From Jimgerdemannia flammicorona (lineage: Eukaryota), in NCBI GenBank assembly GCA_003990765.1, contig RBNJ01000239.1, positions 1 through 35,793 on the forward strand: a stretch of 35,793 bases of DNA, in the 5' to 3' direction. Positions 11,574-33,564 of this stretch are shown here, in pieces. The notes beneath the pieces were generated by a model. It was not told the DNA's origin, searched no databases, and was given only the letters and a program-made list of their open reading frames with translations. A program made the position numbers and the translations under genes. Within the stretch, counting starts at the first letter, position 1, and every line of letters starts with the position of its first letter.

Positions 11574-11907
11574 ACTTAGTATCTATTAACTGGTAATTTA
11601 AGTTAAATCTCTTACTTTTTAGCTAAATAATAAATAACTACCACTTAACTACTATCTAAACTATCTGTCTACTATCTATAATATATGAGCTCAAACCTAT
11701 TACTTATAAGTTTACAAAAAGACTATCTTATAATATATAGTTTGTCTAATTTCCTTAAAGTTTTATAATATATAATTTGCTTTCAAAATATAATTATTAA
11801 TATTCTAAATATTATATAATTTTTTTATTTGAATTATTTAAGTTATCTAAATTATTTGCTATTAAAACTATACTCATTAAGTCTAGAAGCTATTCTATAA
11901 CATATAT

Positions 11908-12350
11908 TATAATATAGTAGATATATAACTATATAAGTATATCAGATTTCTATATCTTGAAAACTTGATCTTCTTTGACTCTGCAGAGTTCTTAGAATGC
12001 AGGAGTGGGTAAGTTCGAAGTATATCTACTTATAGACTTACTAGTTCCTTTGCTTTCTCTTTACTTTAAACTATTTCAATCTGAGGTTTATTCACTCTAG
12101 ATACTGGAGATATTTATACAAGTTTGCCAGCTATGGTGACTAAGTTATAATTATATTTTCTGTAAGTCATTTTCTACAAGTATAGATTCTCTATATCTGT
12201 AGAACTTCTATATTTGTAAAGTTTCTATATTTGTGAAAATATGACTACTATTTGCAAGCTATACTATATTTGAAAATCAGATTTAAGTACTATGTATAAT
12301 CAAATGTCTATTTCTCTAATTTATATTACTAATTCAGATCAACTATCACA
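11908..12350 (-). repeat. 3' LTR of element D
   Basis: Direct repeat of 18095-18540, adjacent to the PPT. Confidence 0.92.
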
Positions 12351-12387
12351 ACTTCCTTCTGAATAGATGATTCATCCCTGAAACATT

Positions 12388-12852
12388 CTATTAACTTGAA
12401 CTCCCAAGTCTCCACAAGCTATATCTCCTTATACTGTACAATCTGTACCATCATATTCTTCCAATGATATCTTCTGATTTATATAAAGTCTCCTGAAATC
12501 ACTTCTCAAAAGTGAGTTAGGGCTGGCTCATCCTCCTTAAATGACTTATATACTCATTTAGCAATAGTGATCTGAACATGGGAGAGCTGGCACTCTCTAA
12601 TCCAATCTTCTTTTCTTATTTCTGGTGCAAATTCAATAATTATCCTAACTTGAAGTATTCTTGAAGCTCTGTCTAATTCTGATAGGCCTTGAAGTGTGAA
12701 ATTTATAACAAATATGTCTATACTATACTTTGAATATTATTGAAGAATTCCTCTATTATGGGCAGCTTAGTAGTATACCATTGTCTTTCTATGGCTTATT
12801 GTACAGTACTAGTGATCTTGAGAGCTATGGCCATTCTTCATTAACTAGCCAT
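12388..12852 (-). pseudogene. Accessory ORF of element D
   Basis: ATG 12852 gives MAS**RMAIALKITSTVQ*AIERQWYTT..., colinear with 21070-21531. Confidence 0.75.
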
Positions 12853-14024
12853 AATACTTCTTGAGTCAGTTTTGGTAAATGGTAGTGGGGATGATTATGT
12901 CTAAGAGTTTTCATAGTCAAAAGGTTATTCCTTTTATATCTTATATAAGATAAGGTTCTTCTCACTTAAACTCCAGTTTTTGTGATCATAAAGCTTCTAC
13001 CATATTCTGATATATCAGGAATTTGTCTTCTATCTTGATAATCTCTAGGGACTTGTGCATTATTCCATTGTAGTACCTGTGCCTTAGTTATATAATTCTC
13101 AGTCTTCTTTCTGATTTGGTATAGTCTCTATATCTCTATATCCATATGTTTTCATATAGTATCTCTATTAGATAATAAGATTTCTTAAGAACTTTCTTCT
13201 CTAAACAGTATCTCTTAAGGGGTAAAATGGGTACTTTGTGATTAGATATCTTGAAGAATAGATAATACTATTGACAGATAGTGATTTCAGTTTTTATAGT
13301 TATTGCAGATCTTGGTAATATTATTCTTGAGAGTCTTATTTGTTCTTTCTGCTTGTCTATTTCTCTGAGAGTAATAGGCTGTAGTCTGAATATGCTGGAT
13401 CTTATACTTCTTATAGAGAACCTCAAAGAACTGGTTTATAAATTCTGTTTCTCTGTCTGTAGTTACTTATATTGGGATCTTGAACTTGCAGATAATTTCT
13501 TTATAGAAGAAATCAGCAATTGACTGTAAATTGGTTTCTTTAAGAGGTCCTGCCTCTATCTATTTTGTGAAAAAGTCTATGATAATAATGATATATTAGT
13601 TACCAGTCAAAGTTAAGAGTAGAGGGCTAATTATATCTATTATAATATATGCAAAGAGTACTAGTTCTATGTGTGCTTATCCTGGGGTCTGATTTCATTC
13701 ATCTTATTTCTGTTTCTGGCATTTATTACAGATCTTGACAAATCATCTGATGTCTTTCTCTATTCCTGGCCACTACATTATTCTTCTTACTTTATCATAG
13801 GTATTTGTTCCTTCTAGATAGCTAAGTTTGTATACTGATTTCATTACTTAATCCTTCTTGTATTTAGGTATAACTAGTAGCTTTTCTTTCTTCAGAATTT
13901 CTCCATCAGTCTCAAATTGTTTCTATATTCTGTTAATAATTATTTGTGTCCATTCTTCCAGATATTGGGGCATTTTTCATTGTCTCAGATAGATGATAAT
14001 TCTATAGTAGAGTTTCTTATTCAT
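12845..14024 (-). pseudogene. int: Integrase of element D (separate ORF)
   Basis: Starts MNKKLYY at cATGAATAA overlapping the RNaseH-frame stop. Colinear with 21521-22714. Confidence 0.88.
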
Positions 14025-17000
14025 GGTTGATTTACTGGTTAGGAGTCCTTTAGAGTGTCTATGAGAGGGTATTTGCATTAGCATTGGTTCTTTCAGGGTA
14101 GTATACAATGGTTATATTATAAGCTTGTAACTTTATAATCTATCTGACATAGATTCCTTTGGATTGTCCAGTGGTTAGCAGCTAAGTCAGAGCAGAGTAG
14201 TCTGTCTGAATAGTGAAGTGTCTTCCTACAAGATAGTAGTGGAACTTCTCTATAGCCCAGATGACTGTAAGATATTCCAACTTATAGGATTAATACTCCT
14301 TTTCAGCTCCTTGGATTTCTCAGCTGAGATATATAATGATATATTCTATTTTATCTTTCTTTTGGACCAGGACAGCTCTTAGTTCTTGGGTACTTATATC
14401 TATCTCTAGGATAAATTTCTGAGTCCAATCAAGTCTTCTGAGAATGGGTACCTGGATCAGCCTGATCTTGAGTTCATCAAATACTTTTTGTTGCCTATCA
14501 GTCCATTGAAACTTGATATTCTTCTTGTTGAGTTTGTAGATTGGGCCTGCAATATTGGAGAATCTTCTAATAAATCTGTGATAATATGAGATAAGTCTCA
14601 TAAAGACTTGGGCTTCAGTGATAGTGGTGGGCCTTAGATATGCTGCTACTGCTTGAATCTTAAGTAGATCTGTATATATTTCATCTCAATTGATGATGTG
14701 TCTAAGATAGGAGATCTTGATTTCTACAAACTTGCACTTCTTGGACTTGATATATAGGCCATACTTTCTTAGCTTCTCTATTATTTGCTGGATGTGTTGT
14801 AGATATTCTTTGACTATCTTGCTATAGATGATAACATCATTCACATAAATCATTATCCATCTTTCTATGTTATAGCAGAAGATTTTGTTCATCATTCACT
14901 GAAAGATTATTAGTATATTACATATTTCAAATAATATTCACAGATAGATATAGGTTCTATCTGGAGTAATGAAGACTGATTTTTCACTTACTGCTTCAGT
15001 GAGGTCTATTTAGTAGAACTCTGAGTATAAATCTAAGATACTGTAATACTGTACTTCATCTCCTAGAGTTATAAGGATATCACTGATGAGGTATAGTGGT
15101 TGGTGATCCTACTTCATAGTTAGGTTGAGCTTCCTGTAATTGGTGTAGAACCTTAGAGCAAATTCTCCTAGTTTGCTTCCTTTTTTTAGAGCCAATATAA
15201 CTGGTAAAGCTCAAGGACTGCTGGATTTTTTGATAATACTAGCTTCTTCCATCTACTTGATTTCTTCTCTGAGCCATTCATAATAGGCTAGTAGAATTGG
15301 TCTTGCTTTTTGATATATTGGTTCAGTGTCTCCTATATCTACATAATAATAGTAGTATAGAGTCTTTCTCTTGATATCCTTGAAATATATGACCAGAATA
15401 TTCTCATATTCATAGAGTATCTTCTTGAGTTCCTTCTTGAGTGAGAATTTATTTCTAATAGTATAGCTATGTTTATTTGTAGTTTCCTCCTTCTTGTGAT
15501 CTAGTTCTATGATCTTAGTGCTGGTGAATATTTCTCTTCCAGTAGATCTGAATCCTTTCCTTTCTCTTTCTATTTCCTCTAACTTCTTGACTTCCATGAT
15601 CTTTAGCTGAAGAACTGGGAAGATTAACATCTGTATTAATTGGTCCTTCTTCTTGATTGAAAATAGAATTATAGGATTATAGTTCCTAGCAATGAGTAGT
15701 ATTTTCTCAATATAGTCTGAATTAATAACTTCTCCTTCAATAGTAATCTCACTCTTGGCCAGGCTACTTCTTGTATTGAGGATCCTGACATAGTTCTTTG
15801 GAATGGTCATTTCCAGACCAGTTTCAAGCAGAGTAGTTGTCTGGAGCTCTAGTATAGTTTTCTCTACTGGCAATATCTATTCTAGCTGCATTCTCTGACT
15901 TATATTCTGGTAGAACTGCATTAAAATGGATTTTCTGAATCTTGACCTTGATGATTTTTTCTTCATTATTGCTGTTCTCTAAAAGAGCTAGTGATTTATC
16001 ATCTTTTTTCTTCTCCTTTTCTTACCTTGTCTGTTTCTTGAGGGTCTTCTGTCTTCTTTTATAGTAGATTTTCTTAATTCTATTAATATACTGATAGCAA
16101 TTGTCAATATTTTTCATACAGTACATCTTGATTCTGTGAGGGCAGACTCCTTGTAGTATATATCCTCCAATGATCCTTTTACACTATTCTTTCTCACTGA
16201 TTCATCTGACTTTTTTTTTTTTTTTCTGGGTAGTTACTATATTGGCTTCTTCTTGCTCACTTTCTTCTTCTTCTATCTCAGATAGTACTTCTTTATTGAT
16301 ATTGATGGGAGTTTGCATCTTCTGAGCATTGAGGTCAATTATTGCTCTGGCTTTATAAAGTCACTGGTTACCAATGAGAATGTTATAATTAGTAACATTG
16401 GTTATGATTACATTTACTGAGATAGTTGCTCTTTCAGACTTGATGGAAACATCTCAAATCTTTCCTAGAGGTGTGGCTCTTATGCTATCTACTGTAATAA
16501 ATACTAATTTAATTACTTCTTCAACCTCCCAAACTAGGCAATCTACTGCTTTCTTACTAAGAAGACATCTTTCTACTCTAGTATCAATGATGGTCTCAAA
16601 GATTCTATCTTCAATTTGACAGGTTGCATAGACAGATATCTTGTAATTATCTTTACTCTCTTCTCTAGAGTCTTCTTGAACATTATTGACTTGGTTATCT
16701 TTCTTAGTTGTCTCAGCAAGTCTATACTTTATTTGCTGTCTAAACATGGGTATTTCTGCCAGCTGACCAAAGGTTATATTGACCTTTTGTTGACTGAGAT
16801 TCTTGAAGATATCATACTTGAAAGTCTTGGTCTTGTGAAGCTTCTTCTTCTTTTCTCCTTTACTGACTGGAGTAGTTTCTCAGATGATATCTTGGACAGT
16901 CTGTTCTAGCTCTATATCTTGATCCATTTCTTCATCTTGGCTTTCCATAATAGTTTCTATCTATTTTTTCACAAGATTCTTCTTGGGTCTTTCTGGTGGT

Positions 17001-17980
17001 CTTTTGTAGGGTTGCTTGCAGACATTCTTCTTGACAGTCTCAGTGAGGTAGGCTTCCCATTCTTCTTTATCTGATTCTCCAATCTTCTTGAAGATAATAG
17101 TATTGGCCTGTTCTTATTCCTTATAATATTGCTTGACTGAGCTTTGTGCTTGGTCTTGCTCATACATTTATATAAATAGTGACCTTCTTTTCTACAAGTA
17201 TAGCAGATATCTCTCTTCTTGTCTGAGGTAGTGGCAAAGGTTCTGAACTGGGCAGCAGTCTCTTTCTCTAAATTCCTTTACTATATCTCTGAGATAGGCA
17301 GTCATTTTAGCAAACTTCTTAGCAAGTTCCTATATTATATTACTGTTTCTCTACTACTCAGTAGCTCTTGACTGAGGTGTGTTTCAATTGATCACTATGG
17401 TAGATATGTATCATACTGATTGCCTTGGGTGCTTCAATTCTAACTTCAGTAACTCTTCTCATTGTATGATCTTATAGATATCTGGCTATCTAATATCACT
17501 GGACATAGGTAACCTTTTGTACTAGGTCCAGAACTACTGATGATGAGCAGATAGTCAGAACTATCTCTGGGTGAACTTCTTTTATAAAGATTATCTTGGC
17601 TACTTGATCTTAGATAGTGATAGCATAATCTACAAGAATTATTTGATATCAGATTCTAGTATAGAATGTGTTTAGATCCTCACCCATTCCTTGATAAGTT
17701 GTATTGAGCTAATCTTTCAGAGCTTACTTAATCTCATCTGTATAGTATGTGGTTTGGAGCCAGGTCTTCTGTGTATCAGTATAGCATCAGCATCATTTCT
17801 TATATAGATTGCAGTTATAAATACTACTCTTACAGGACCTCATAGACTAAAGGGTATGAGGGCTACTTGCTGTATAGTTATCAGAGTCCTTATAGTAGTA
17901 TATTGCTCAAAATCATCAATTAAGGTGATGATTGATTCATCTGAAGTATATCTATAGAATACTCATAGTCTCATATCCAT
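14017..17980 (-). pseudogene. pol: gag-protease-Cys/His finger-dUTPase-RT-RNaseH ORF of element D
   Basis: Gag ATG at 17980; IIDTR (protease); GVCPHR...NCYQ; EGEVINSDY and KGFRSTG (dUTPase, ~15538-15954); YVND (RT YVDD); FILEIDIS (RH). Many transition-derived stops. Confidence 0.92.
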
Positions 17981-18094
17981 CTTGTCTAGATGTTTTTATT
18001 TTATTTATATAGTTGTTCAGGTGGTAGCAGTTGTTTATTGTTCAGCTTGAAAGTGAGGGATTCATTTTGAATTACTAATTAATAGGTACCAAGT

Positions 18095-18540
18095 TGTAAT
18101 GTAGTAGATGTATAACTATGTAAGTATGTCAGATTTCTGTATCTTGGAAATTTAATCTTCTTTGACTCTACAGAGTCCTCAAGATATAGAAGTGAATGAG
18201 TTTGAAATGTATCTGTCTGCAGACTTACTAGTTCTTTTACTTTTTCTTTACTTTGAACTATTTTGATCTGAGGTTTATTCACTCTAGATACTGGAGATAT
18301 TTATATAAGTTTGCTAGCTATGTATAAGGTGGCTAAGTTATGACTATGTTTTCTATAAGTCATTTTCTATAAGTATAGATTCTCTATATCTATAGAATTT
18401 CTATATTTATAAGATTTCTATATTTGTGAAAATATGACTACTATTTGCAAAACTATACTATATTTAGGAATTGGATTCAGATATTATAATCAAATATCTA
18501 TTCTCCTGATTCATATTACTAATTAAGATCAACCATTATA
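18095..18540 (-). repeat. 5' LTR of element D
   Basis: Direct repeat of 11908-12350, followed on the minus strand by ACT-TGGTACCTATT PBS. Confidence 0.92.
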
Positions 18541-18869
18541 ATATATAGATTATTTATTTTTTTTATTAAAAAGTTTAAGCCTGTTATCTATAAGTTTATA
18601 AAAGAGAAATAAATTTATATATTATTATTTATTACTTTAAAAAAGTCTCAAGCCTATTACTCATTTTTGATATCTATATAAATACATATTACCATCTGAA
18701 TTATTTACTACTAAAATACTCATTTTTCTATTAAAAAGCTCAAGCTCATTATCCACAAATCTATATAAGAGAAATAAATTTACACATTACTATCTACTAC
18801 TCTAAAAAAGCCTTAAGTCTATTATCTAATTTTCCATAAGCTATTATTTATTAAAAGTCTATATAGGAA

Positions 18870-19239
18870 TAGTGCTCTCAAATAAATTGAATTGAATTGA
18901 AGATCATTTAAATCAAATCAAATTAGAGATTTTTTATTTAAATAAATTTTAAATTAAATCAAATTTAAATTAAATAAAGGGTCTAATTCAAACCCTATTT
19001 TTAGAAATATAATAACTTGATAAAAATATATCTAAGTTTAACTATCTTTAGCTTGTTAGATTTATCTTATGTATATAGGGAAATCTAACAAACTAAAGAT
19101 AGTTAAATTTAGAAATATATTTATTAAGTTATTATATTTCAAAAAATAGAGTTTGAATCAAATTTGGAATCAAATTAGTCTTTGATTCAATTCAAATTAA
19201 ATTAAATTGAACTTTTGATTTAATTTATTAGAAGTACTA
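18870..19239. mobile_element. hAT-type foldback MITE
   Basis: Termini TAGTGCTC...GAAGTACTA, palindromic body with central hairpin, degenerate 8-bp flanks TATAGGAA/TATAAAAG. Confidence 0.82.
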
Positions 19240-19276
19240 TATAAAAGAAACTAAATTTACATATATTGTTATCTAT

Positions 19277-19756
19277 TGTAATATAGTAGATATGTAATTA
19301 GAAAAATGCAGTAGATTTCTATAACTCTTCTTAACTTCTCAGAGTTATAAGTAGTATCTGTCTGATCTCATTATCAGACTACCAGGGTGAGGCTCAAACT
19401 CTTTTGATCTGAGGTTTATTCACTTTAGATACTAGAGATATTTATACAAGTTTACTAGCTATAAGGTGGCTAAGTTATGACTATATTTCCTATAAGTTAT
19501 TCATCATAAGTATTAATTCTTAATATCTATTAATATCTGTAAATACTTTAACATTTGCAAATACTTTAACATCTGTGAATACTTTAATATCTACAAATAC
19601 TTTAATATCTACAAATACTTTAACATCTGTTAAAGTTTCTATATTTGTGCAATATAACTGCTATTTGTAAAGTTATACTATAATATGTAAATCAGAAAAT
19701 CAGATTTATATATTATGATCAAATATCTATTTTCTGTTTCAATTTCATATTATATA
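19277..19756 (-). repeat. Solo LTR (F-like subfamily) with 18-bp U3 tandem repeats (19538-19630)
   Basis: TGTAAT left terminus, shared TATA/AATAAA core, U5 matches the F LTRs, no PBS or PPT adjacent. Right boundary approximate. Confidence 0.8.
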
Positions 19757-19771
19757 TTATATTATATAAGA

Positions 19772-20544
19772 TAGTGCTTTTAAATAAATTAAATCAAATC
19801 AAATTTAAATCAAATTAAAGCCTGATTTAATTTGATTAAATTAAATTAAAGTCCAATTTAATTTAAAATATTTAGCCTAAATTCAAAATGTAATAACTCA
19901 ATAAAAATATATCCAAATTTAATATTCTTTATTATATAATATTCTAGTACTCCCAATGAATTAAATTGAATTGAGGCCCAATTCAATTTGAATCAATTCA
20001 AATTGAGGTTCAATTCAATTTGAGGTCTGATTTGAACTCTATTTTTAGAAATTAAATAACTCGACAAATACACATCTAAATTCAATAATCTTTAGCTTGT
20101 TAGATTCCTATTATATAGAGGAATCTAACAAGCTAAAAGTCATTAAATTTGGACATGTATTCATCAAGTTATTACATTTCTAAAAATAGGTTTAAAATTG
20201 GACTCTCAATTCAATTTGAATTCAATTTAATTCAAACCAATTCAATTTGATTCGAATGACTCTCAATTTGATTTGATTCATTTGGGAGTACTACTAGATT
20301 CTCTATTATAAAATATATTGAATAAGCTAAATTTATTAAATTTAGATAAGTTTTAGTCAAGTTATTAAATTTTGAAAAATTAGATTTAAATTGGACTTCA
20401 AATTAAATTGGACCTCAATTTAATTTAAATCAAATCAAATTGAGCCTCAATTCAAATCAAATTGATCCTTAATTTGATTTGAATATTTTAAATTAAATTA
20501 AATTGAAGGTAAATTTAATTTAATTTAATTTATTCTAAGTATTA
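19772..20544. mobile_element. hAT-type MITE interrupted near its centre by a second MITE
   Basis: Termini TAGTGCTT...AAGTATTA; 8-bp flanks ATATAAGA/ATATAGAA. Confidence 0.7.
19945..20293. mobile_element. hAT-type foldback MITE (nested, less degraded)
   Basis: TIRs TAGTACTCCCAA / TTGGGAGTACTA; central hairpin AGCTTGTTAGATTCCT...AGGAATCTAACAAGCT. Confidence 0.88.
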
Positions 20545-20565
20545 ATATAGAAGAAATATATATAT

Positions 20566-21032
20566 TGTAATGTAGTGGATGCTTACTCTTGAAAGTACAT
20601 CAGATTTCTGTATCTTGAAAACTTGACTGTTCTGACTCTTGCAGAGTCTCTTGAAGTTGCAGGGGAGAGTGGGTGAGTTCGAAGTATATCTGCCCACAGG
20701 CTTACTAGTTCCTTTATTATCTCTTTGCTTTGAACTATTTCGATCTGAGATTTATTTACTTGAAGATACTGGGTTATTTATACAAGTTTGCTAGCTATGA
20801 GATGGTTACTGGGTTACATGGCTAAGTTATGAGTCATTTAACACTTTGCAAAATATTTTACCAGTTGTGAAATGCTATACCAAATCAAGAAGCTCGATCT
20901 TGCACTTTGCAAAATATTTAGCAAATGGCAGAATCAAGGACTGCTAACTATGTGGCTATACTACTTTAGGACTGGGTGTGATCAAGTATCTGTTCTCTAT
21001 TTTCTTCTTCCAAATCTGGCTATACCATCACA
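20566..21032 (-). repeat. 3' LTR of element E
   Basis: TG...CA termini; ~92% identical to 32718-33184 by manual count. Confidence 0.96.
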
Positions 21033-21069
21033 ACTTCCTCCTGAATAGATGATCTCGTCCCTGAAGCAT

Positions 21070-21531
21070 CTATTCAAACTCCCAAGCTTCAATGGTCTGT
21101 ATGGTCTTGTATTGTGCGATTTATTGCATTACTGTTTCCCAATGATATTGCCTGACTCAGTCGAAGTCTGAGGGAGTCACTCCTCACAGGTGGGCTAGTG
21201 CTGATTCATCCTCTCAGAATAGCTTATAGATTCTCTTAGTAATGGTGATCTGGGAATAGGAGAGCTGGCATTCTGCGATCTAATTTTCTTTGGTCATTTC
21301 TGAGTCTTGATTGAGTACTTGACTATGTTTGAAGTACTCTTGGAATTCATTTTGATGCTGATAGGTCTTGAAGTGTGAGATCCAAGAGAGATGAGTCTGC
21401 ACAATGCTTTGGATACTGTTATAGGACTCCTCTATAGTTGGAGGCTCAGTGGTGCACCATTGTCTCTCAATGGCTCTTTGGGCAGTGCTAGTGATCTTGA
21501 GTGTTATCACAGTACTTTTGTTACTGGCCAT
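21070..21531 (-). pseudogene. Accessory 'env-position' ORF of element E (153 codons)
   Basis: Reads MASNKSTVITLKITSTAQRAIERQW...KEN*IAECQLSYSQITITKRIYKLF*EDESALAHL*GVTPSDFD*VRQYHWETVMQ*IAQYKTIQTIEAWEFE*. The ATG overlaps the integrase stop and the ORF ends at the PPT-proximal hairpin. Confidence 0.82.
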
Positions 21532-22714
21532 GATATTTCTTGAGTTGGTTTTGGTGAATAGTGATGAGGATTATTGTGCCTGAGGGTTTTCATAGCCAAA
21601 AGGTGGTCCCTTTTATATCTTGCACCAGGTAAGGTCCTTCCCACTTGGGCTCCAGTTTTCATAACCAAGAAGCTTCTACCATATTCCAATACACTAGAAC
21701 TTTATCTCCTATCTTGATAATCTCTAAGGGTTTGTGGGTCTTTTCTGCATTCCTCCATTATAGTGTCTGTGCCTTGGTTATGTAATCTTTAGCCTTTTTC
21801 CTGATTTGGTGTAGTCTCCATATTTCTATGTCCATATGTTTCCATATGGCATCTCTATTGGAAGATAGGGTTCTCTGAGAACATTCTTCTCCAAACAACA
21901 TTTCTCAAGGGGTAAAGTAGGTACTTTGTGATTGGATATCCCAGAGAGCAGATAATGCTATTGGCAGATAGTAATCCCAGTTCTCGTAGTTATTGCAGAT
22001 CTTGGCAATACTGTTCTTGAGGGTTTTGTTGGTCCTTTCTACTTGTCCATTTCCTTGAGAGTGATATACTATGGTCTGAATATGCTGGATCTTGTACTTC
22101 TTGTAGAGAACTTTGAAGAACTGGTTCACAAATTCTGTTCCTCTATCTGTAGTTACTTGTGTTGGGGTTTTGAACTGGCAGATAATTTCCTTGTGGAAGA
22201 AATCAGTGATTGACTATGCATTGGCTTCCATAAAAGATCCTGCTTCTATCTATTTTGTAAAAAGGTCTACGATGACGATGATGTATCGGTTGCCAGTCAA
22301 AGTCAAGGGTAGAGGGCCAATTACATCCATTGCAATGTGGGTGAATGGTACTGGTTCTATGTGTGCTGATCCTGGGGTTCGATTTTGTTGGTCTTGTTTC
22401 TATTTCTGGTATTTGTTGCAGGTCTTGATGAATTGTCTGATATCTTCCTCTATCCCTGGCCACCATATTGTTCTCCTTGCCTTGTCATATATATTCGTTC
22501 CTCCTAGATAGCCAAGTTTGTATACTGATTTCATCACTTGCTCCTTCTTGTGTTCTGGTATGACTAGTAGTTTTCCTTTTTTCAGTGTTTCTCTGTCAGT
22601 TTCAAATTGTTTCCATGTTCTGTTGATAATCATTTGTGTCTATTCTTCCAGATGTTGGAGCATCTTTCGCTGTCCCAGGTATATGATAATTCCATAATAA
22701 AGCTCCTTATTCAT
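21521..22714 (-). pseudogene. int: Integrase of element E (separate ORF)
   Basis: Motifs MNKELYY...; IWWPGI...CNKYQ; YHSQGNGQVERTNKTLK; KLEPKWEGPY; ends KKYHGQ*. No chromodomain. Confidence 0.93.
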
Positions 22715-24878
22715 GATTGATTTGTTGGTTGGAGGTAGTTCAGGGTGTCCATAAGAGGGCATCTACATTGGCATTGGTTCTTTCAGAGCGATGTACAATG
22801 GTTACATTATAAGCTTACAACTTCATTATCCATCTGGCATAGATTCCTTTGGGTTGTCTGGTTGTCAGTTGCCAGGTGAGAGCTGAGTGATCCATTTGGA
22901 TGGTGAAGTGTCTTCCAGCCAAGTAGTAGTGGAACTTTTCTATAGCCCAGATGACTGCAAGGCATTCCAACTTATAGGATTCATATTCTTTTTCAGCTTC
23001 TCGGGTTCCATGGCTGAGGTATGCAATGACATACTCCACTTTATCTTTCTTTTGAGCTAGGACTGCTCCTAGTTCTTGTGCACTTGCATCAGTCTGTAGG
23101 ATGAATTCTTGAGTCCAGTCAGATCTTCTGAGGATGGGTGCCTGAGTCAGTCTGACCTTGAGTTCGTCAAATGCTTTTTGTTGTCTACCAGTCCACTGGA
23201 ACTTAGTATCCTTCTTGTTAAGTTCATAGATTAGTCCTATAATATTAGAAAATTCTCTAATAAATCTGCAATAATAGGAGGCAAGTCCCATGAAGGCTTG
23301 GGCTTCTGTAATAGTGGTGGGTCTTGGGTATGCTGCCACTGCTTGTATCTTGAGGGGGTCTATGTATATTCCATCTTGGTTGATGATGTGGCTGAGATAG
23401 GAGATCTCAATTTCTGCGAATTTGTATTTTTTGGGCTTGATGTATAGGCCATACTTTCTCAGTCTTTCCATTATCTGCTGGATGTGCTGCAGGTATTCTT
23501 CTGGTATCTGGCTGTAGATGATTACATCATCAACATAGACTATTATCTATCTTCCCATATCATAGCAGAAGATTTTGTTCATCATTCGCTGGAAACTTGC
23601 TGGTACATTGCACATTCTAAATGGTATTCATAGGTAGACGTAGGTTCCATCTGAGGTGATGAAAGCTGATTTTTCACTTGCCATGTCTGTGAGTCTGATT
23701 TGGTGGAATCCTGAGTATAAGTCTAAAGTGATGTAGTACTGTGCTTCATCTCCCAGTGTTATGAGGATGTCATTGATGAGGGGCAGTGGTTGGAAATCCT
23801 ACTTGGTAACCATGTTGAGCTTTCTGTAGTCAATACAGAGTCTTGGGGGCAAATTCTCCAGGCTTGCTGCCTTTTTTTGGAGCTAGTACAACAGGTGAGG
23901 ACCAGGGGCTGCTTGCTTCTTTAATGATGCTGGCTTCTTCCATCTGCTTGATTTCTTCTCTGAGCCATTCTCAGTAGGCTGGCGGGACAGGTCTTGCCTT
24001 CTGATAAATTGGTTCAGTGTCTCCAGTATCTACTTCATGATAGTAGTGTGGGATCTTTCCTTTGATATCCTTGAAATCTGTGGTAAGGATATCTTCAAAT
24101 TTGTGGAGTATTTCCTTGAGTTCTTTCTTGAGTGGAAATTCATTTCCAATGGTGTAGCTGTGCTTGCTTGTGTTTTCCTCCTTCTTATGCTCAAGTTCAG
24201 TGATCTTGGTATTGGCAAATACTCCTCTTCCTGTGGATCCAAATCCTTTCTTTCCTCTTTTCGTTTCCTCCAGCTTCTTAACTTTTATGATCTTTGGTTG
24301 TAGTATCAGAAAGATCAACATTTGCACCAATCGGTCCTTCTTCTTGACTGGAAATGGGATTGTAGGATTGTGATTCCTAGCAATGAGTAGAATTTCTCCC
24401 ATATAGTCTGAATCAATGACTCCTCCTTCAATTGTGATTTCGCTTCTAGCCAGGCTGTTTCTTATCTTGAGAATCCTGACATGATCCTTTGGGATGGTCA
24501 TCTTCAGTCCAGTTGTGAGTAGGGTAGTTGTCTGGGGTTCCAGTACAGTCTCTTCTACTGTAGTGATGTCCATTCTAGCTGCATTTTCTGACTTGTATTC
24601 TGGCAAGACTGCATTAGGGTGGATCTTTTGAATCTTGACCTTGATTTCTTCTTCATCATCACTGTCCTCCAGGAGAGCTGGTGGTTCATCATATTCCTCC
24701 TTCTCTTCTTCCCTGATCTGTTTTTCGAGAGCTTTCTGCCTTCTTTCCTGATGGATCTTCCTGATTCCAATGGTGCACTGGTAGCAATCATTGACATACT
24801 CCATACAGTACATCTTGATCCCATGAGGACAGACTCCTTGTGGTACATAACCTTTTGCCATCTTCTTGTACCATTCTT
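22707..24878 (-). pseudogene. pol: Cys/His finger-dUTPase-RT-RNaseH portion of element E pol
   Basis: SPWSSPVVL, YVDD at 23526-23537, FILQTDAS, KLECLAVIWA. One +1 frameshift near 23845 relative to element D. Confidence 0.95.
24229..24645 (-). other. dut: dUTPase domain within pol
   Basis: Trimeric dUTPase motifs: AARMD (AGxD), RNSLA, GGVIDSDYMGEI, RLVQM, RGKKGFGSTG. Confidence 0.95.
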
Positions 24879-24955
24879 TTTTTTTTTTTTTTTATAGTCC
24901 CTTGGACTCCATCTTTATTACTAGTCTATGAATAAGTATACAATATCACCACCCA

Positions 24956-27900
24956 CTATCTGATCCCCATTGGGGGGCCCCTCCCCACCTCTTCACAGAC
25001 AAAGACCACCCTCTCACCAACAACTCCAACTCTCCCACCACTCTGACCACAGATTTTCACCACTAAGCGGCGCCTCCGACCCCCCTGCAGCCCCCAACCA
25101 AGCCACCAGCCCATCAAGACATCCTCCATAAGGCACTGCCACCTTGATAACCAACTCCCCAAGCTCTGTCGCCTCTCCTCCTCAAATACAAATAGCCAGT
25201 GACTGGCCAGCCCAACCCAAATAGCCAATGCCCAGCCCAGAGTAATCCACTCCTCCTCTACCCCTCCTATCAATCAATCCCTCAGGTCCTCCCACCTCCC
25301 CCATATATCATCACCCCTACATCTTACCCCCAAGTAGTCCCCAATAGCCCGCCAAAAGTCTCCCAACACCTCACACTCCCCTAGCCAATATTCTGGCATC
25401 TGTACAAATCCCCCTTCCTGCCCTACATTATGGCACTCCTTGCAGTCAAAGCAGCCCCCTACAACCAGGTGTCCTGAGCAGAAGTTAAGCATTACATTTC
25501 TCTTCAGCACACACCACCAGACCACTCAGTACTTCGGCGGCATCCAATTCTTCACCATGGCACTCCAGGTCTAGACCCCATACCAGTCCCACTCCTCACC
25601 AATTCTAACTCCTTGCCAACCACTAGGCCACAGATCCTGGTCTGGTCCTCTTTGGCATTTGATGCCATCACTAATGTTGAACTCAAGTAAAGGCATATCT
25701 CCCAGAAGAATGCCATCCCATCTCCACATCGCCAGGCCCCAAGCTCTCTCCTCCTCATCCCCTCACCAGTGAATACCAATGCAGTGTGCCCCCTTGGCTA
25801 TCCCCCACCAGAAGTCTTTATATCTCAGTTGCGCAGTGTTCTGAAGCCCAACTAATGATAGAAGATCACTAGTCAAGCCTCTTGGTGATGTCCGCCTCTC
25901 CTATACCTTCTGTAGTAGAGAAACCCAGTCCCCTCCACACAACTCCACTGCCCTCCTCAGCTACCATGCCCTCAAGCAGTGTAGTCTTTTGGAGAAGTCC
26001 ACCAGCCCAAGACCATCTCTCACCACTGATAGGGACAAAGTCTCCCAACCAATCTGACTATGTCTGCCAGCCCAAATTCATCCCTTGGCCACCTTCACCA
26101 ATCTCTTCACCACCCAAGCTGGGAAGTCCAGATGATAAGCCAAATACCACAGCTTCGGCAGCCAGTATACATTCAAAATCGAGATCCTTCCTGCCAGAGA
26201 GAAGTGTCTACCCCCCCAACCCCATAGATTCTCCTCCCAAATTCCAATCCTCTGCTCCCACCACAGCCTGGGCAAAACAGACCCATAGACCGACAAATAG
26301 ATGCCCAAGTACCACACTGCCCCTCTGGTGGGGACAATTGTTCCAATAACTTCTCCGCCCACCAGACCATTGCCCAGCACCATTGTTTCACACTTGTGCC
26401 AATTCAGCTTTGCCCCAGAGTTCTCCTCATACCACTCCACTGTCTTCTTGAGCTCCTCGACATCTGCTGTCACTTCCAAACCAACCACCATATCATCTGC
26501 AAAGGCTCCAACCTTCCAGCCAACTCTATAGATAAAGAGCCCCACTATCCTCTACTGAATCCTGTCCATTAGAGGTTCCAAAGAAAGAGCATACAAAATG
26601 GGGGACAGTGGGTCCCCCTGGGGCACTCCCCTACCTAGAGGGAAAGCTACTCCTCTATGCCCATTACACACAAGCACAGCCCTACTCCTTTCCAGTAGGC
26701 TGACCATCACTGACCGAAATGGGACCAGAACCCCAATTCTATCTAATACTTTCACCAGCCAGACTCGCTGCACCCTGTCATAAGCCTTCTCCTGATCCAA
26801 GAAGATGAGATGCCCATCTAGTCTACAGGCTCGAGCACCTTCAATAACTCCATGAATCCAGGCCATGCCATCTCGAATAAGCTGACCCCCTATGAAGCCC
26901 CTCTGCTCAACACCCACAATTTGCTGGGCTACCTTCTGTAGCCATGCGACCACCACCTTAGTCACCAACTTTCTGTCCATATCAAGTAATATTATTGGTC
27001 ACCAGTTCTTCCAATCCTCTCGCCTACCCTTATTCTTATAAAGCAGCATCACCAGCCCAAGATCCTGCTCCCCCACCTATCTCCCTGACTGTAATATAGA
27101 GTCGCACATTGCTGTCATCTCCCCCAACATGCCCGGGACTCCAACCATTCACTTCCAGAAGTCCTAGGGGAGGCCATCCTCCCCAGGCGCCATACCCGAG
27201 GCTGTCATGGCAAGAATCTGGTAGATCTCATCCTCCTTTACAGGCACCACCAGGTCACCTAGTCCTTCAGCTTGTGGTGGGTGCCAATCTTCCAATGTTT
27301 GGTCAATGGCCATAGCATCCACCCCACCCTCTTTCTTACTCTACAATCTACTCCACCATGCCTTCAGCGTTCCAAGGATGTCCTGTACACCATGCACTAG
27401 TACACCATCCATGTCAAGTACCCCTTCCCACCACTGCTGTACCCTTCTTGCCTGAAGTGCCCTTGTGAGGAACTTGGAAGGCCTCTCCCCTTCCTCCAGC
27501 CCCTGCCAATGAAGCTGTGCCACCAGGCCTTGCACCCTGGACTCTTCCTCTTCCCGCAGCACCTGTTGTAGTTCCCCGACCTCCATCTTCACCCTCGTTA
27601 TTCTCCAATTCTCTTCTCCCTCCACTACTGTCAGTCTCGCCCACTCCTCCAGGAGCCTAACCAATCTAGTAGAAGCCCAATGCACTTTCTGCCTTCACTG
27701 CTTCCCAGCCACTCTGCCAGCCTCACTCCAATACATCTTAGCCATCTCTTTCATCCTCATCCACTGAACCCCAATCACGGCCCCTTCCTACTGCCAATTC
27801 ACCACCTTCATCTGAATGTCATTTGCCCATTCCTCCCACCATGACTCATCATCCAACAAGGAGGAATTTAGGTGCCAATGTCCAGGCCCATCACCACTTC

Positions 27901-28612
27901 CCCCAAAACACCCCTGTCCCAAAAGGCCCCAGTAATCTGACCACAGACACCATTCTACCTCTAGTACCTTCCAAATGTCACAGCCCCAACAGTCGGCCAT
28001 CAGAATCCAGTCAATCCTTGTCCCCAAACCTCCAGCCCAATGCGTATATACCCTCCTCTCTCCCCAGTACTCTCTACCAGCATCCATCAGTGCTCCTAGT
28101 CTTTCAACCTCCTCCCACATCACCAGCCCCCCACTCCTGCTCTCAGCACCCCGTCCTCCATCAGTTCTATTCAGCCATACATCCTGAACCATATTGAAAT
28201 CTCCTCCAAGCATATCCAACCCAGCTTCAGCAAGGATCCCACTCTCTAGGAGCCCTTTCACCCAATCTACATGCTCCCCCCACACAGCAGGGCAGTAACA
28301 GGAGCCAACTGTGACTGGCTCCCAACCTGCATGAATCCACTCACCCCAGACCAGTCTCTCTCCCCAGCTCCTCACATCCCTTATCTCCCCTCTGCCTTTT
28401 CGAACCAGAATCCCGACCTTGCTGTTCCAAATTGCCATACCACCCCATTCCTTAGTCCATTTCATCCTATCAGAGTCATCCTCGCACCTGACATCCTGCA
28501 AGAGGAAGAGATCGGCCTCCAATCCCTTCAACCAAATAAAAATGTTCCTGCATCTAACTGCGCCCCTTAGCCCATTCATATTCAAAGAAAAAATGTTGGT
28601 TGTACTGTTCAT
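24956..28612 (-). pseudogene. LINE ORF2 (APE endonuclease, RT, C-terminal Cys/His motif)
   Basis: Motifs SLNMNG, LQD, GGDFN, RIDW, SDY (SDH); LDQEKAYDRV, GVPQGDPLSP, FADD, YLGI; DCKEC...E(H/Y)WLGEC. Fragments share one frame and are broken by stops. Confidence 0.95.
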
Positions 28613-28642
28613 AATGAAATACTATTTGTTTGCAATCAATCT

Positions 28643-30673
28643 CTACTGCTCTATACCCATCTCCTCCTGTGCCTTGTCCAGATTATGTTCAGCCATCACC
28701 TCCTCCTCTTCAGCCCTCTGAGCCTCCAGTCCAGCCAACAGCTCATTCATCTCCTTATCAGCCTTCTCCTCAAACTCCTCTCTGTACTTGATGCAAGCCT
28801 CCTGCCAAAGCTGCAACCCATGATGCCTGTTCCAACAGTACTCAGCCTTCTCCCCAGCAACAACTGCTAACTCTGCCTCCCTCTCCTTGTCCACCTCATA
28901 CCCTTCCTCCTCCAGATACACTGCGAGAATTTCCACCTTCAGCACTATCACCACTCCTTCCCTCTGCAGAATTCTCGTCCAGTACTCATCACCCATCCCA
29001 CGCAAGTCCACCTCCCCTAGCTCTTCTGCCGCCAGGTTATTCATCATCCGACACATCCAAAGTAGGTTCCCCACCTCCTTCCCCCCCGGGGTCGCTGGCC
29101 TCCCTCCACCCAGCATTGTGGTGTCAGCTCCCGCACTCGCGTCCTCATCCTATACCTCCGGGACATCTACCAGTTCCTCCTCCCCAGCCACCACTACTTG
29201 GTCCCCATCCATCACCTCCGGAATGCTGAATTTCACCTGCTGGGTCCCCAGCATCATCACGTCCTCCCCAGACTTGTTCCTGGAAGCCAGGCCATGCCTG
29301 ATAAGTGGGGAAGGGGTGGGGGAATTCTCCCAGCCTTCATCCCAAACCTCCAAGGTACCGTCAGCATATGGGTTGCTAATCTTCACCTCTTGAGCCTTCC
29401 CTGTCTTTGTCCCATCATTCCCACTCCTCTCACCAGCCCAGACACTTGCTCTAGCTCCTTCTACACCCATCTTCACACTCACATCCTTCTGTGATCCACC
29501 CCCCAGTTTAGCCAGCAGATCCTTCTGTCTTTTCTGCCCCTGAGCCCTTTCCCACTGCACCTTGTCCACTTGAATCCTCTTTCCATCCACCACCTCCAGG
29601 TGCATCAACTCCTCAAAAGTCTTCCAGGCCTTAGCTCGCCATTCCACAGCTCCATCCAGCTCCTCCAGTGCTTCCAATAAATCCTCCTCCTCTTCTTCAC
29701 TTCTTTTCACCCACGTCACCTTGCACAGGAATGCTCCCCAAACTATCACTGAAGGCCAGTCCCTTGTCTTCCTGGTAGCCTCTTTCCCAGCCAGCCGAAT
29801 TCTCACATCCACATCTCCAGTCCTAAGTATGGTCCCTTCCCAGACCCTGAATCCAATATTCACCACCTCTCCATACTCAGCCATGATATCCTCCACTCTC
29901 TTTCTTGTCTCCATTGCCATCACTGTGGGTACTCCTTTCACCAGCAGTTGGACCACCCTCAGATCCCATTTCAAATACCTCGCCATCGGAACACACACCT
30001 CCCCAACCACCAACCCAACCTTCAGTGCCTCCTCCAGTGGTTCAACCTCCTCAAAACCCACCTCCACCCCCTCTAGTTCCTTCAGAAACTTCACCAAAGC
30101 TGCTTCTGCCACCTGCTTAGCGATAAGCCCCAACACCATTTTTGCCATCACTGCTAAGCCCTGGAAGCACAGCATGACCGTGAATGCCAAGATTGACTTC
30201 TTGAGTAATGGAGCCACTGTCAGTCCCATTACACCATCTGCCAAGTCCCCGGGCCTCGTGCCCTTCCCACCACTTGGCTCACCATCAGCAGTCCCATCTA
30301 GATTTTTTTCCAGATCACCCATCACACCCCCATCAGCAGTCCCTGCCCCAGCTGCAACCCCCCCAGCTCCACCCCTATGGCCCTCCAGAGAGGTACCCCC
30401 AAGAGGTTGCTGTCTGGAAGTCTTCACCGGTACCTTCCCCCCTCTCAGCCAGCTCTCCAGTCCAGCTCCCTGCTGACCCCCCTTCACTTTCTCTGCAAAG
30501 CTCACCCTGCCAGACCCTTGACCTCCAGCTCCACCCCCTCCTCCACTGCGGCCTCCCGCCAGCAGGCCACTCATACTTCCCCCCAAGCCGGGGCCTCTCC
30601 CCACTTGCTGCCATTCAAATACTCCAGGGCCACCCTGCTCAGTATGCACCTCTGGCTGCTCATTGGTCGCTAT
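28643..30673 (-). pseudogene. LINE ORF1 (Gly-rich N-terminus, RRM-like core, coiled-coil C-terminus)
   Basis: ORFs 29150-30649 and 28643-29116 are in frame across one stop. The likely start is ATA (from ATG) at 30673, and the ORF lies 30 nt upstream of ORF2. Confidence 0.85.
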
Positions 30674-30777
30674 GATACTAGTAGCTTTTCTCCAGAAACT
30701 GTGTCAAAAGTGTTGCCAAAAGATTGTGTAACCTGAATGTTACTAGAGAAAGATACTCTTCTTCATGCACTATTCTT

Positions 30778-32603
30778 CTTTACTCATCCATCCAACTTTC
30801 TTCTTCTTTAGAGTAGTCACTATATACATAAGCTTCCTCTTGCTTACTCTCTTCTTCCTCCATATCAGGCAGGACTCCTTTGTTGACATTGATGGGAATT
30901 CATATCTTCTGTCTCCAGTAGATGATCTGCATCTTCTGAGCATTGAGATCGATTACTGCCTTGGCTTTGTGAAGCCATTGATTGCCAATAAGGATGTCAT
31001 AGTTAGTGGTATTAGTTACAATTATATCTACTGGGATTGTTGCTCCTCCAATCTTGATGGGAACATCTCAAATCTTTCCCAAAGGTGTGGCTCTTGTGCC
31101 ATTAGCTGTGACAAACACCAGCTTAGTTGCTTCTTCCACATCCCAACCTAGGCAGTCCGCTGCCTTCTTGCTGAGAAGACATCTTCCTGCTCCCATATTA
31201 ATGATGGCTTCAAAGATTCTATCTTCGATTTGGCATATTACATATGCAGAGGTTTTGCAATTGTCCTCACTTTCTTCTCCTGAGTCCTCTTGAATATTAT
31301 TGGCCTCTGTTATCTTCCATCCTTGTTCCTTAGTTGTTTCGGTAAGTCCAAACCTCATTTGCTGTCTGAATGTTGGGATTTCTGTGAGCTGACCAAAGGT
31401 TGCATTGATCTTTTATTGACTGAGGTCCTTGAAGATATCATACTTGAAGGTCTTGGTCTTGTGAAGCTTTTTTTCTTTTTCTCCTTCACTAACTGGAGTG
31501 ATTCCTCAGATGATATCTTGAACTGCTTGCTCCAGCTCAATATCTTGGTCCATCTCTTTGGCTTGGCTTTGTATGGCAGTTTTCATCTGCTTTTCCACTG
31601 GGTTCTTCTTGGGTCTTCCTGGTGGTCTCTTGTAGAGTTCTTTGCGAATATCCTTCTTGGTGGTCTGAGCAGGATAGGCCTTCCATTTCTCTTCATCAGA
31701 TTCTCCGATTTCTTCAAAGGTGATTGTATTGGCCTGCTCCTTATTTTGTATAGCATTGCTTGGTTGAGCCTTGCACTTAGTTTCGCTCATACATTCATAG
31801 GAGTAGTGGCCTTCTTCTCTACAGCTGTAGCAGGTACCTTTCTTCTTGTCTAAAGTGGTGGCAAACTTCTGAATAGGGCAGCAGTCTCTTTCTCAAATTT
31901 CCTTTATCATGTCTCCTAGGTGGGCAGTCATTTCGGCAAACCTTTTGGCGAGTTCTTCCATAGGGTCACTGTTCTTTTGCTGCTCTATAGCTTTTGGCTG
32001 AGGTGTGTTTCAATTGATCATTGTAGTAGAGATTATACTGGTTGCCTTGAGTGCTTCAATTCTGACTCCTGTGACCCTTTCCATTGTATGGTCTTGTGGA
32101 TGTCTGGCTATCCAGTATCGCTGAGCATAGGTGACCTTCTGTGGCAGATCCAGAATCACTGGTGATGAGCAGATGGCTATGGCTATTTCTGGATGGACTC
32201 CTTTCATGAAGGTTGCTTTGGCTACTTGATCTTAGATAGCAGCAGCATAATCTATAAGGATTATCTGATATCAAATTCTGGTATAGAATGTGTTTGGATT
32301 CTTGCTCATTCCTTGGCATATTGTATTGAGCTGATCCTTCAGGGCTTGCTTGATCTCATCTGTATAATATGTATTATGGAGCCAGGTCTTCTGTGCTGTC
32401 AGTATAGCATCAGTATCATTTCCTGCATGAGTTGTGGCTATGAATGATGCTCTGGCAAGACCTTGTAGGCTGAAGGGCATGAGGGCTACTTGCTGTGCTG
32501 CTGTCAGGATTCTTACAGTAGTATACTGTTCGAAATCGTCAATGAAGGTGATGATTGATTCATCTGAGGTATATCCATAGAATACTGGTGGTCTTATATC
32601 CAT
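30778..32603 (-). pseudogene. gag: gag-protease portion of element E
   Basis: MDIRPPVFYG; zinc knuckle CYSCREEGHYSYEC (~31791-31832); RPPGRPKK; protease IINMGAG (DTG in consensus with D) ... DILIG. Single frame with stops. Confidence 0.93.
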
Positions 32604-32696
32604 CTTATCTGGGTATTGGAACTCAGTTTGTATGGTTGTTTGGGTAGTGGCAGTTGTTCATTGTTTAGCTTAAAAGTGAGGGATTTGTCTTGAATT

Positions 32697-32714
32697 ACCA
32701 GCCAATAGGCACCA
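32697..32714 (-). promoter_or_regulatory. Primer-binding site of element E
   Basis: TGGTGCCTATTGGCTGG begins 3 nt after the 5' LTR; TGG pairs with the tRNA CCA end. Confidence 0.8.
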
Positions 32715-32717
32715 AGT

Positions 32718-33184
32718 TGTAACATAGCAGATGCTTACTCTTGAAAGTATGTTGGATTTCTGTATCTTGAAAACTTGACTGTTCTGACCTTCGCAGAGTC
32801 TCTTGAAGTTGCAGGGGAGGGTGGGTGAGTTTGAAGTGTATCTGCCTACAGGCTTACTAGTTCTTTTACTATCTCTTTGCTTTGAACTATTTCGATCTGA
32901 GGTTTATTCACTTGAAGATACTGGGTTATTTATATAAGTTTGCTAGCTATGAGATGGTTACTGGGTTATGTGGCTAAGTTATGAGTCATTTAACACTTTG
33001 CAAAATATTTTGCCAGTTGCGAAATACTATACTAAATCGAGAAGCTCAATCTTGTACTTTGTGAAATATTTAGTAAATGGCAGAATCAAGGACTGCTAAC
33101 TATGTGGCTATACTACTTTGAGACTGGGTGCAATCAAGTATCTGTTCCCTATTTCCTTCTTCCAAATTTGGCTATACCATCACA
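32718..33184 (-). repeat. 5' LTR of element E
   Basis: Direct repeat of 20566-21032. Confidence 0.96.
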
Positions 33185-33237
33185 ATATATATTACTAGAA
33201 CTATATATTTTTAGAAGTTTAAATAGATACTTTAAAG

Positions 33238-33530
33238 TAGTGCTCTTAATAAATTAAATCAAAAGTTGAGATTCAATTTAAACTCTATTTTTTAAAATAT
33301 AATTACTTAATGAAAATATGTCCAAATTTAATAATATTTAGCTTATTAGATTTCTCTATATAAGAGAAATCTAACAAGTTAAATATTGTTAAATTTGAAT
33401 ATATTTTTATCAAGTTATTATATTTTGAAAAATAGGGTTCAAATTAGACTCTCAATTTAATTCAAATTTAATTTAATTTGTACTTTATTCAAATTGAAAA
33501 ATCTCTAATTTGATTTATTTGAGAGCACTA
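33238..33530. mobile_element. hAT-type foldback MITE
   Basis: TIRs TAGTGCTCT / AGAGCACTA; 8-bp TSD CTTTAAAG / CTTTAGAG. Confidence 0.9.
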
Positions 33531-33564
33531 CTTTAGAGATAAAGTAATCTATTTAGAAGAAAGT

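Follow-up and report, generated by a model that had tools for sequence, protein, structure and literature searches.

Open reading frames (ORFs) other than env are common at the env position of long terminal repeat (LTR) retrotransposons, and to our knowledge almost none has a known function, CERV being a rare exception. One such frame, here called ORF3, lies between the integrase and the 3' LTR of a decayed Ty3/Gypsy element, element E, in contig RBNJ01000239.1 of Jimgerdemannia flammicorona (assembly GCA_003990765.1). The window analysed is the whole of this stretch, positions 1 to 35,793 of the forward strand, and an initial annotation had grouped with ORF3 of E the frames at the same place in three further elements of the window, A, D and G. 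Is ORF3 a gene, are the four copies one gene, and what might such a gene do for its element? Sequence comparison supports well the view that ORF3 is a real accessory gene under selection. We consider it likely that the copy in E is the decayed form of a genuine third gene, carried by a small clade of Ty3/Gypsy elements that lack a chromodomain and bear a dUTPase, a reading that we put forward together with a model of its role in the nucleus.

The start codon of ORF3 in element E, at 21531, lies 8 nt before the pol stop and is made from the H and G codons of the pol tail, which reads ...LKKYHGQ before a TAA at 21523-21521. Its own stop, at 21072-21070, is 36 nt from the 3' LTR, and the purine run at the end of that spacer, AGGAGGAAG, is likely the polypurine tract of E, to judge from its sequence. 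With the stop so close to the LTR and the purine run between them, ORF3 fills the whole space from the integrase to the polypurine tract. A sense-strand ORF outside gag and pol, after the integrase, is found in E, in D, in A and in L001, an E-family element from a metagenome that is described below; in element A it stands after the integrase and before LTR-like sequence. The frame in E is interrupted by five internal stops, at codons 84 (TAG), 106, 116 and 125 (TGA) and 137 (TAA), which the initial annotation had read through as products of transitions. Judged against intact relatives, all five are products of C-to-T or G-to-A decay. At four of the five positions, at least two of the intact proteins P0009, P0023 and P0027 have W, R or Q; at codon 125 P0023 alone has R, and the other two have L and H. 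The residues of the intact relatives likewise bear out the reading F(R)EDESALAHL(R)GV that had been given across the stops.

These relatives came from several searches. A word-indexed search with the E peptide, its stops written as X, returned six proteins from eight candidates, the best of which, P0009 (153 residues), is 76% identical to the E peptide over 99% of the query. Cluster look-ups added two further full-length forms of 153 residues, P0023 and P0027, and with the ORF3 of L001 there are four distinct intact short forms, whose mutual identity is 69-85%. The A peptide retrieved three proteins from 431 candidates, and the intact long forms to which it belongs have 247-342 residues. An exhaustive profile search of 1,835,955,588 representatives (E <= 0.001) found eight clusters, among them an intact G-type protein, P0018. 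The longest match in that search has 342 residues, so that no fusion of pol and ORF3 is present among the eight clusters. All sources of ORF3 relatives are metagenome records of JGI or ENA, and the sole name given to any of them is 'hypothetical protein'. On the strength of these sequence searches the family is narrow and restricted to a lineage. A likeness to expanded proteins of Glomeromycotina, which the initial annotation had suggested, found no support, the eight clusters in 1.84 billion representatives all being metagenome records. The starts of the intact proteins are conserved, as MAN(N/Q) in the short forms and MPP in the long forms, and in every lineage the ORF3 start codon has an A at position -3.

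We searched metagenome contigs for the locus as well as for the protein. Of 126 pattern matches, one was a confirmed relative, L001 (6479 nt), a complete element of the E family with an open ORF3 at 5795-6256. It has the order LTR, primer-binding site, gag with a CCHC knuckle, protease, dUTPase, reverse transcriptase (RT), RNase H, integrase, ORF3, polypurine tract and LTR, and its polyprotein places the protease at 418-507, the dUTPase at 648-775 (PF00692, E 2.7e-28) and the RT at 892-1057. Counted from its ATG, ORF3 shares 44 nt with the end of pol in L001 and 11 nt in E, and across the elements the distance from ORF3 start to pol stop ranges from -44 to +531 nt. Positions 1-80 of L001 hold the last ORF3 codons, a polypurine tract and an LTR, and positions 6200-6479 hold ORF3, a polypurine tract and the start of an LTR; the contig may be either a circular assembly with one LTR or a tandem. 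Its U3 contains a 21-nt tandem repeat. The same search of viral contigs gave 86 and 19 pattern matches and no relatives. In one soil-metagenome run, 940 contigs reach a likeness of 85% or more to the E stretch (54, 192, 463 and 231 by identity class); they are thinner over ORF3 than over pol, in a measure of contig depth that cannot rank the parts of the element.

The pair formed by E and L001 allowed a test of selection on DNA, and the test consists of this one pair. The two ORF3 sequences differ at 142 positions, 41, 27 and 74 of them at codon positions 1, 2 and 3. By the Nei-Gojobori method the ORF3 frame has a dN of 0.235 and a dS of 1.65, a ratio (omega) of 0.14. The other two frames of the same DNA gave omega values of 0.83 and 1.90, and the neighbouring integrase, taken as a control, gave 0.097. 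The initial annotation had called for a comparison by transversions only, given the decay of these elements; these too favour position 3 (13, 12 and 30 by codon position, p 0.004). Its proposal that the conservation of the protein reflects a selected gene is thus upheld by an omega of 0.14 in this frame as against 0.83 and 1.90 in the others. Together with the intact forms of 153 and of 247-342 residues, this ratio marks ORF3 as a sequence that has been kept as coding.

Whether the four window copies share one core was answered unevenly. The claim that A and G have an N-terminus and a core in common proved clear, as the intact G-type protein P0018 matches A by tblastn with an E value of 2e-21. 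Between the A/G pair and the D/E pair the likeness is weaker and yet significant: BLASTP of the window copies aligned 16 of 49 residues as identical (E 3e-5), BLASTP of the intact forms 21 of 67 (about 31%, E 2e-6), and the alignment of profiles that had been proposed as a check gave, by hhalign, a probability of 84.9% and an E value of 6.4e-6 over 92 columns. With a hidden Markov model (HMM) built from long forms only, five of the seven short-form proteins outscored all of 2000 shuffles (25.2 bits, the best shuffle having 10.4), and in the reverse direction the short-form model placed three of eight long forms above the shuffles, all of A type. The link from A/G to D/E is above chance but modest, and G is joined to E only by way of A. 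We accept, from these alignments, that a core of about 140 residues is homologous in all four copies, the G-to-E link being transitive.

The alignment of the four lineages has 11 identical and 21 similar consensus columns, and its most recognisable block reads AK(K/R)IH(Q/K)(I/L/V)F, followed by (I/L)..V...D(F/I)..(L/V). The block is the one that had been noted as an R-x-Y-x-x-F motif, with the correction that most intact relatives have H in place of the Y. Between A and E the integrases share 36% identity, over 215 residues, and the ORF3 cores about 31%, a correspondence that fits descent of ORF3 along with the elements.

Each window copy, taken by itself, is dead, and the relatives clarify where the copies begin and end. 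The copy in D is colinear with that of E, as proposed: the two have a mean column identity of 84% with one 1-nt gap, and tblastn of P0009 matches D at 12831-12631 and 12640-12395. The copy in A is 74% identical to the intact P0001 (325 residues) over 323 alignment columns. The start that had been assigned to it stands; its end had been placed at 3317, where a CAA-to-TAA change has turned a Q codon into a stop at 3315-3317, and the frame in fact continues to 3479. It starts 531 nt after the A pol stop. The intervening spacer (1962-2492, 531 nt or 177 codons) contains 11 stops in the frame of pol and ORF3 and does not resemble what precedes the G frame. In G, too, the assigned start at 10641 holds and the end near 9230 does not: the frame runs on to 9030 and is split by a 730-nt fragment of a long interspersed nuclear element (LINE), beyond which tblastn of P0018 matches the 3' part at 9542-9033. 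Codons for (I/L)NLK stand on both sides of the LINE fragment, a repetition that suggests a target-site duplication.

The elements that carry ORF3 have the order gag (CCHC), protease, dUTPase, RT, RNase H, integrase and ORF3, and the presence of PF00692 inside the polyprotein, in element E (E 2.7e-21) as in L001, identifies them as dUTPase-bearing Ty3/Gypsy elements. We considered whether ORF3 might derive from gag; BLASTP of P0009 against the gag region of L001 gave a best E value of 14. A CCHC gag lies upstream and is unrelated to ORF3, which makes ORF3 a third gene. Pfam scans found no chromodomain (PF00385) in the integrases of E, A and L001, in line with the initial annotation, nor in the 18 members of the ORF3 family. 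Relatives of the polyprotein that cover it fully and include the dUTPase are metagenome proteins of at most 51% identity among the 120 matches listed; the named matches among these are Gypsy elements of animals and plants, 39-42% identical over RT and RNase H only, and named fungal proteins are absent from the 120. PF00385 is carried by some of the more distant relatives of pol that bear a dUTPase.

What kind of protein would ORF3 encode? Across seven members the highest mean Kyte-Doolittle value over 19 residues is 0.17-1.07, and the grand average of hydropathy is -0.48 to -0.70. Hydropathy thus marks the product as hydrophilic and gives no segment resembling a signal peptide or a transmembrane helix in these seven proteins, and with no hydrophobic segment the product is not Env, as had been proposed. 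In the short form (D and E), which has a charge near neutral, the conserved N-terminal domain, some 140 residues long, makes up the entire protein. To this the long forms join a conserved L..L..(I/V/M)F(E/Q)GP(P/S)I module and a tail with a net charge of -20 to -31, in which short hydrophobic motifs such as DLISF and DLITF occur. Pfam gave nothing above its cut-off for the window ORFs, for P0001 or for the 18 members. Below the cut-off, P-loop_TraG (E 0.042) and PH_SPT16 (E 2.8) appeared on A, and HTH_Tnp_Mu_2 (PF09039) on 3 of the 18 members at 13.0-14.8 bits (E 0.031-0.11), under the gathering score of 20.5. The PF09039 matches fall in short forms only, at residues 4-63, and we keep them as a lead only. 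A search of PDB sequences with the family profile produced two rows for GspF at E 0.2-0.26, which are not significant.

Sequence and structure models together suggest that the product is soluble and all-helical. A model of P0009 with itself reached a self-association score of 0.47, the best of three controls being 0.00; contact agreement between runs was at least 65% and the partner's predicted local distance difference test (pLDDT) at least 65. Among microbes the mark for self-association is reached by 21 of 30 one-chain pairs and 0 of 23 single chains; among eukaryotes the figures are 17 of 29 pairs, 1 of 7 for those without an older solved relative, and 0 of 30 single chains. The symmetric interface in the model comprises residues 40-94, which are the conserved helical core. 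The model supports binding of the protein to itself and does not prove it. Foldseek comparison of the low-confidence monomer models with PDB and BFVD gave no match at E <= 0.001, and in a VIA-align comparison with 48,161 chains none reached a Z of 5, the best being 3.8, which for models this poor says nothing about the fold. In the ESM Atlas the best score for P0018 was 0.86, to clusters in which Basidiomycota is the commonest phylum, and this is below the level of a lead. P0009 scored 0.95 to small helical proteins of bacteria, phages and archaea, with Translat_reg, HTH_3 (15% of members) and Closter_coat in lower rows, and we treat all of these as leads only.

Most described additional ORFs (aORFs) of plant LTR retrotransposons are much longer than ORF3. 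In the account of them in PMC7264820, they resemble ORF3 in having no homology to known proteins and in being kept within element lineages; ORF3 differs in having no Pfam family, in having a host that does not seem to be a plant and in being common to at least four deeply diverged lineages. Indeed, env-position ORFs to which no function is assigned are a known kind in LTR retrotransposons, to go by what PMC10309623 and PMC7264820 say of them. The closest parallel in description is CERV. As PMC10309623 presents it, CERV is partly encoded by an ORF at the env position of Cer1, a Gypsy/Ty3 element of C. elegans, and its mRNA is spliced; the genomic RNA depends on CERV for its export, a dimerisation motif is predicted in the protein, and it has no relatives beyond a narrow host range. 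Like the predicted product of ORF3, it is a non-membrane protein at the env position of a Gypsy/Ty3 element. The two are likened by that description, and they differ in that CERV has 517 residues and a five-exon mRNA, its N-terminal half overlapping gag and pol, whereas ORF3 has 153-342 residues and a start of its own.

Among fungi, the initial annotation had taken Ty3/Gypsy elements to encode gag and pol alone. This was too strong, as a 2010 survey draws an 'add. ORF' in fungal elements (PMC2864245). Those elements are described there as containing a chromodomain, which E, A and L001 lack, and the 'add. ORF', to which no function is assigned, is likened to ORF3 by description. The same survey (Novikova et al. 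2010) places the dUTPase of the Postia placenta element PosPlaTy3-5 between protease and RT, and on its account a few fungal Gypsy elements have their dUTPase where E and L001 have it. Errantivirus Env and the env-like ORFs of Athila-type elements are alike in position alone; ORF3 has no membrane segment, a short form of 153 residues and a product that is acidic to neutral. A full-text literature search, with subscription journals, Repbase and Dfam outside its scope, found no description of the ORF3 family. We regard the family, by its sequences, as new and its kind, a non-env ORF at the env position, as already known.

We propose the following model for the gene. ORF3 would be translated from its own, probably subgenomic, mRNA, because its starts are conserved with an A at -3 and its distance from the pol stop varies; a distance that runs from -44 to +531 nt also argues against any single mechanism of coupling to pol. 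The product might act in trans, as a dimer held together through the conserved helical hairpin, and might serve the element's own cycle in the nucleus. By analogy with what CERV does for Cer1, it could regulate the element's RNA or its pre-integration complex, or serve either of them as an adaptor, and in the long forms the acidic tail could be the part that docks with host factors. A trans-acting role in the nucleus, directed at element RNA or the pre-integration complex, is by this analogy the function we find most likely, tentative as that choice is. A fuller version, in which the chromodomain-less branch invented a dimeric nuclear factor that acts in trans and either tethers the pre-integration complex to chromatin in place of the lost chromodomain or, like Rev and CERV, licenses both export and expression of the unspliced element RNA, we hold to be doubtful. 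As for the roles that the initial annotation had named, namely anti-silencing, transactivation and integration targeting, none has support from homology.

Other explanations must be set against this. ORF3 might be an adaptor for integration targeting or chromatin tethering, binding the integrase and a mark on host chromatin in place of the chromodomain. The integrase does lack a chromodomain, while some more distant dUTPase-bearing relatives have PF00385; ORF3 is located where a chromodomain would be appended; and the acidic tails of the long forms carry short hydrophobic motifs (DLISF, DLITF). No homology to a chromatin reader was found, however, the short form has no tail, and what favours the idea is positional, so that we think it unlikely. 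A closer tie to the integrase has been considered too, in which ORF3 would be a C-terminal extension reached by ribosomal frameshifting or read-through, the fusion itself replacing the chromodomain. The frames of short-form ORF3 and pol overlap, for 11 nt in E and for 44 nt in L001; in L001 the ORF3 frame is open from 5756, and the ORF3 of A is in the frame of A pol. What makes such a fusion quite unlikely is that every lineage has a conserved Met with an A at -3, at which conservation begins; that the 177-codon spacer in A holds 11 stops and is unlike the sequence upstream of the G frame; that no fused form is among the eight matches of an HMM search open to all lengths; and that gene calls on short contigs begin at the Met and not at the contig edge.

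A different origin is conceivable, namely that one ancestral element captured ORF3 as a piece of a host gene, which would now be either a passenger or a factor directed at the host, for instance to suppress silencing. Capture is often the source of extra ORFs in LTR elements, according to the cases set out for bdelloid rotifers (PMC5408684) and plants (PMC7264820), and the metagenome relatives could include host genes. Yet no cellular homologue appeared among 1.84 billion representatives, in Pfam or in PDB, and at least four lineages, with integrases just 36% identical, retain ORF3. We therefore judge capture to be very unlikely, with the proviso that purifying selection speaks against a mere passenger and not against a host-directed role. 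That there is no protein at all, with nucleotide signals close to the element's 3' end accounting for the conservation and chance for the open frames, is an idea we find barely credible. The region lies next to the polypurine tract and the LTR, and its coding nature is read from sequence; against this, substitutions concentrate at codon position 3, transversions included, omega is 0.14 in this frame alone, four distinct versions of 153 codons are open and share just 69-85% amino-acid identity, and the proteins remain alike in lineages between which similarity of the DNA can no longer be detected.

The view of ORF3 as a third gene with a nuclear role has its own weak points. Expression of ORF3, as RNA or as protein, is a prediction from sequence, and a search of sequencing runs for the stretch returned one row, the soil metagenome (word share 0.06), with no RNA run listed. 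The dN/dS estimate comes from a single pair in which E is dead and has decayed neutrally since its insertion, and its dS is near saturation. L001 itself has a TGA in gag, one stop in the integrase and one frameshift, and the openness of its ORF3 could be partly luck. G-type proteins, P0016 and P0017 appear tied to the short form only through the A type. Some of the other metagenome relatives could be host genes. As for function, the short form is without both the second module and the acidic tail, and so the role of either is not the shared function. The AlphaFold models, helical in the core, are poor (pLDDT 49.7 for P0009 and 55.2 for P0018), and the dimer model was made without a family alignment, on a chain of modest confidence. 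With no match in Pfam, PDB sequences or folds, nothing in the comparisons indicates a biochemical activity.

A compact family that occurs in at least four lineages under purifying selection offers a tractable case for asking what accessory genes do, be it RNA export, targeting or defence against silencing, and in the short form, at 153 residues, the conserved domain stands by itself. If the reading as a nuclear factor is true, a retrotransposon that is probably fungal would encode its own accessory regulator, in a group thought to manage on gag and pol alone. The family also illustrates that genes borne by transposable elements of abundant soil eukaryotes have no place in named protein databases and come to light only through metagenomes. 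In the annotation of genomes, ORFs of the ORF3 type are to be assigned to the element and not to the host. The positions of the copies and of the elements around them are collected in Table 1.

Table 1. ORF3 copies in the window, followed by the retroelements that carry or interrupt them.
Feature	Positions	Strand	Basis or remark
ORF3 of E, short form	21070-21531	minus	153 codons and stop; 76% identical to P0009 over 153 residues
Spacer from E ORF3 stop to 3' LTR	21034-21069	minus	Ends in purine run AGGAGGAAG; same arrangement in L001
ORF3 of D	12388-12852	minus	E family, hypermutated; many stops, 1-nt deletion
ORF3 of A, long form	2493-3479	plus	328 codons, 2 internal stops (codon 6; 3315-3317)
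ORF3 of G, 5' part, long form	10273-10641	minus	Stops and one frameshift; tblastn of P0018 at 10544-10320 and 10323-10273
LINE 3' fragment in G ORF3, of the LINE family inserted in E	9543-10272	minus	730 nt; 68% identity to 24880-25603
ORF3 of G, 3' part to stop	9030-9542	minus	tblastn of P0018 residues 99-247, 47% identity, E 1e-38
Element E	20565-33185	minus	Same family as D; ~76% identical to D
3' LTR of E	20565-21033	minus	Self-blastn, 91.7% identity to 32717-33185
5' LTR of E	32717-33185	minus	Self-blastn
Integrase of E	21521-22561	minus	Pfam PF17921 (E 1.3e-12), PF00665 (E 8.2e-11)
dUTPase domain of E polyprotein, upstream of RT	24229-24612	minus	Pfam PF00692 (E 2.7e-21)
Non-LTR (LINE) retrotransposon within E polyprotein	24854-30767	minus	Gap in D/E alignment; Exo_endo_phos (E 2e-9), RVT_1 (E 1.3e-14)
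Element D	11907-18536	minus	Self-blastn; LTRs at both ends
3' LTR of D	11907-12346	minus	Self-blastn, 83% identity to 5' LTR
5' LTR of D	18094-18536	minus	Self-blastn
RNase H and integrase part of pol of element A, cut by the window edge	3-1961	plus	Pfam PF17919, PF17917, PF00665

Self-blastn and Pfam scans showed the window to be a nest of dead retroelements. Within the E integrase, the zinc-binding domain occupies 22394-22561 and the catalytic core 22061-22348, and a KLEPKWEGPY module marks the C-terminal part. At the LTR edge at 20565, 11 of the soil-metagenome contigs continue into sequence like a primer-binding site. The LINE that interrupts the E polyprotein is rich in G+C, encodes an AP-endonuclease and a reverse transcriptase, ends in an A run at its 3' side and has a strong C skew on the plus strand; another diverged LINE piece lies at 6813-7545. 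Of element G, on the minus strand, the window contains the 3' part only.

The D lineage is heavily mutated, with C>T or G>A making up 350 of 452 polarised changes. Its C-to-T rates by 3' neighbour are 0.59 for CpG, 0.41 for CpA, 0.29 for CpC and 0.16 for CpT, and D has a CpG observed/expected ratio of 0.01 and a G+C content of 33%. These rates recall repeat-induced point mutation, directed here at a single copy. Both this pattern and the place of the dUTPase hint at a fungal host, which is likely. The E lineage is milder, with 130 of 284 changes of this type. An in-frame TGA stands at one gag codon in both D (17842-17840) and L001 (771-773), where E has Q near 32470; by comparison of the sequences it is most simply explained as recurrent decay of CGA and not as a programmed stop.

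A tRNA gene search of the window found none. Long homopolymers occur within 33932-34034 and 35704-35793, where there are two runs of A, 37 and 62 nt long, and one of C, which extends over 90 nt to the final base of the window and could be an artefact of assembly or reads. The very A+T-rich stretches that lie between the elements, at 18537-20560 and 33186-33900 (19-23% G+C), are made of short repeated units, alike to one another in both orientations.

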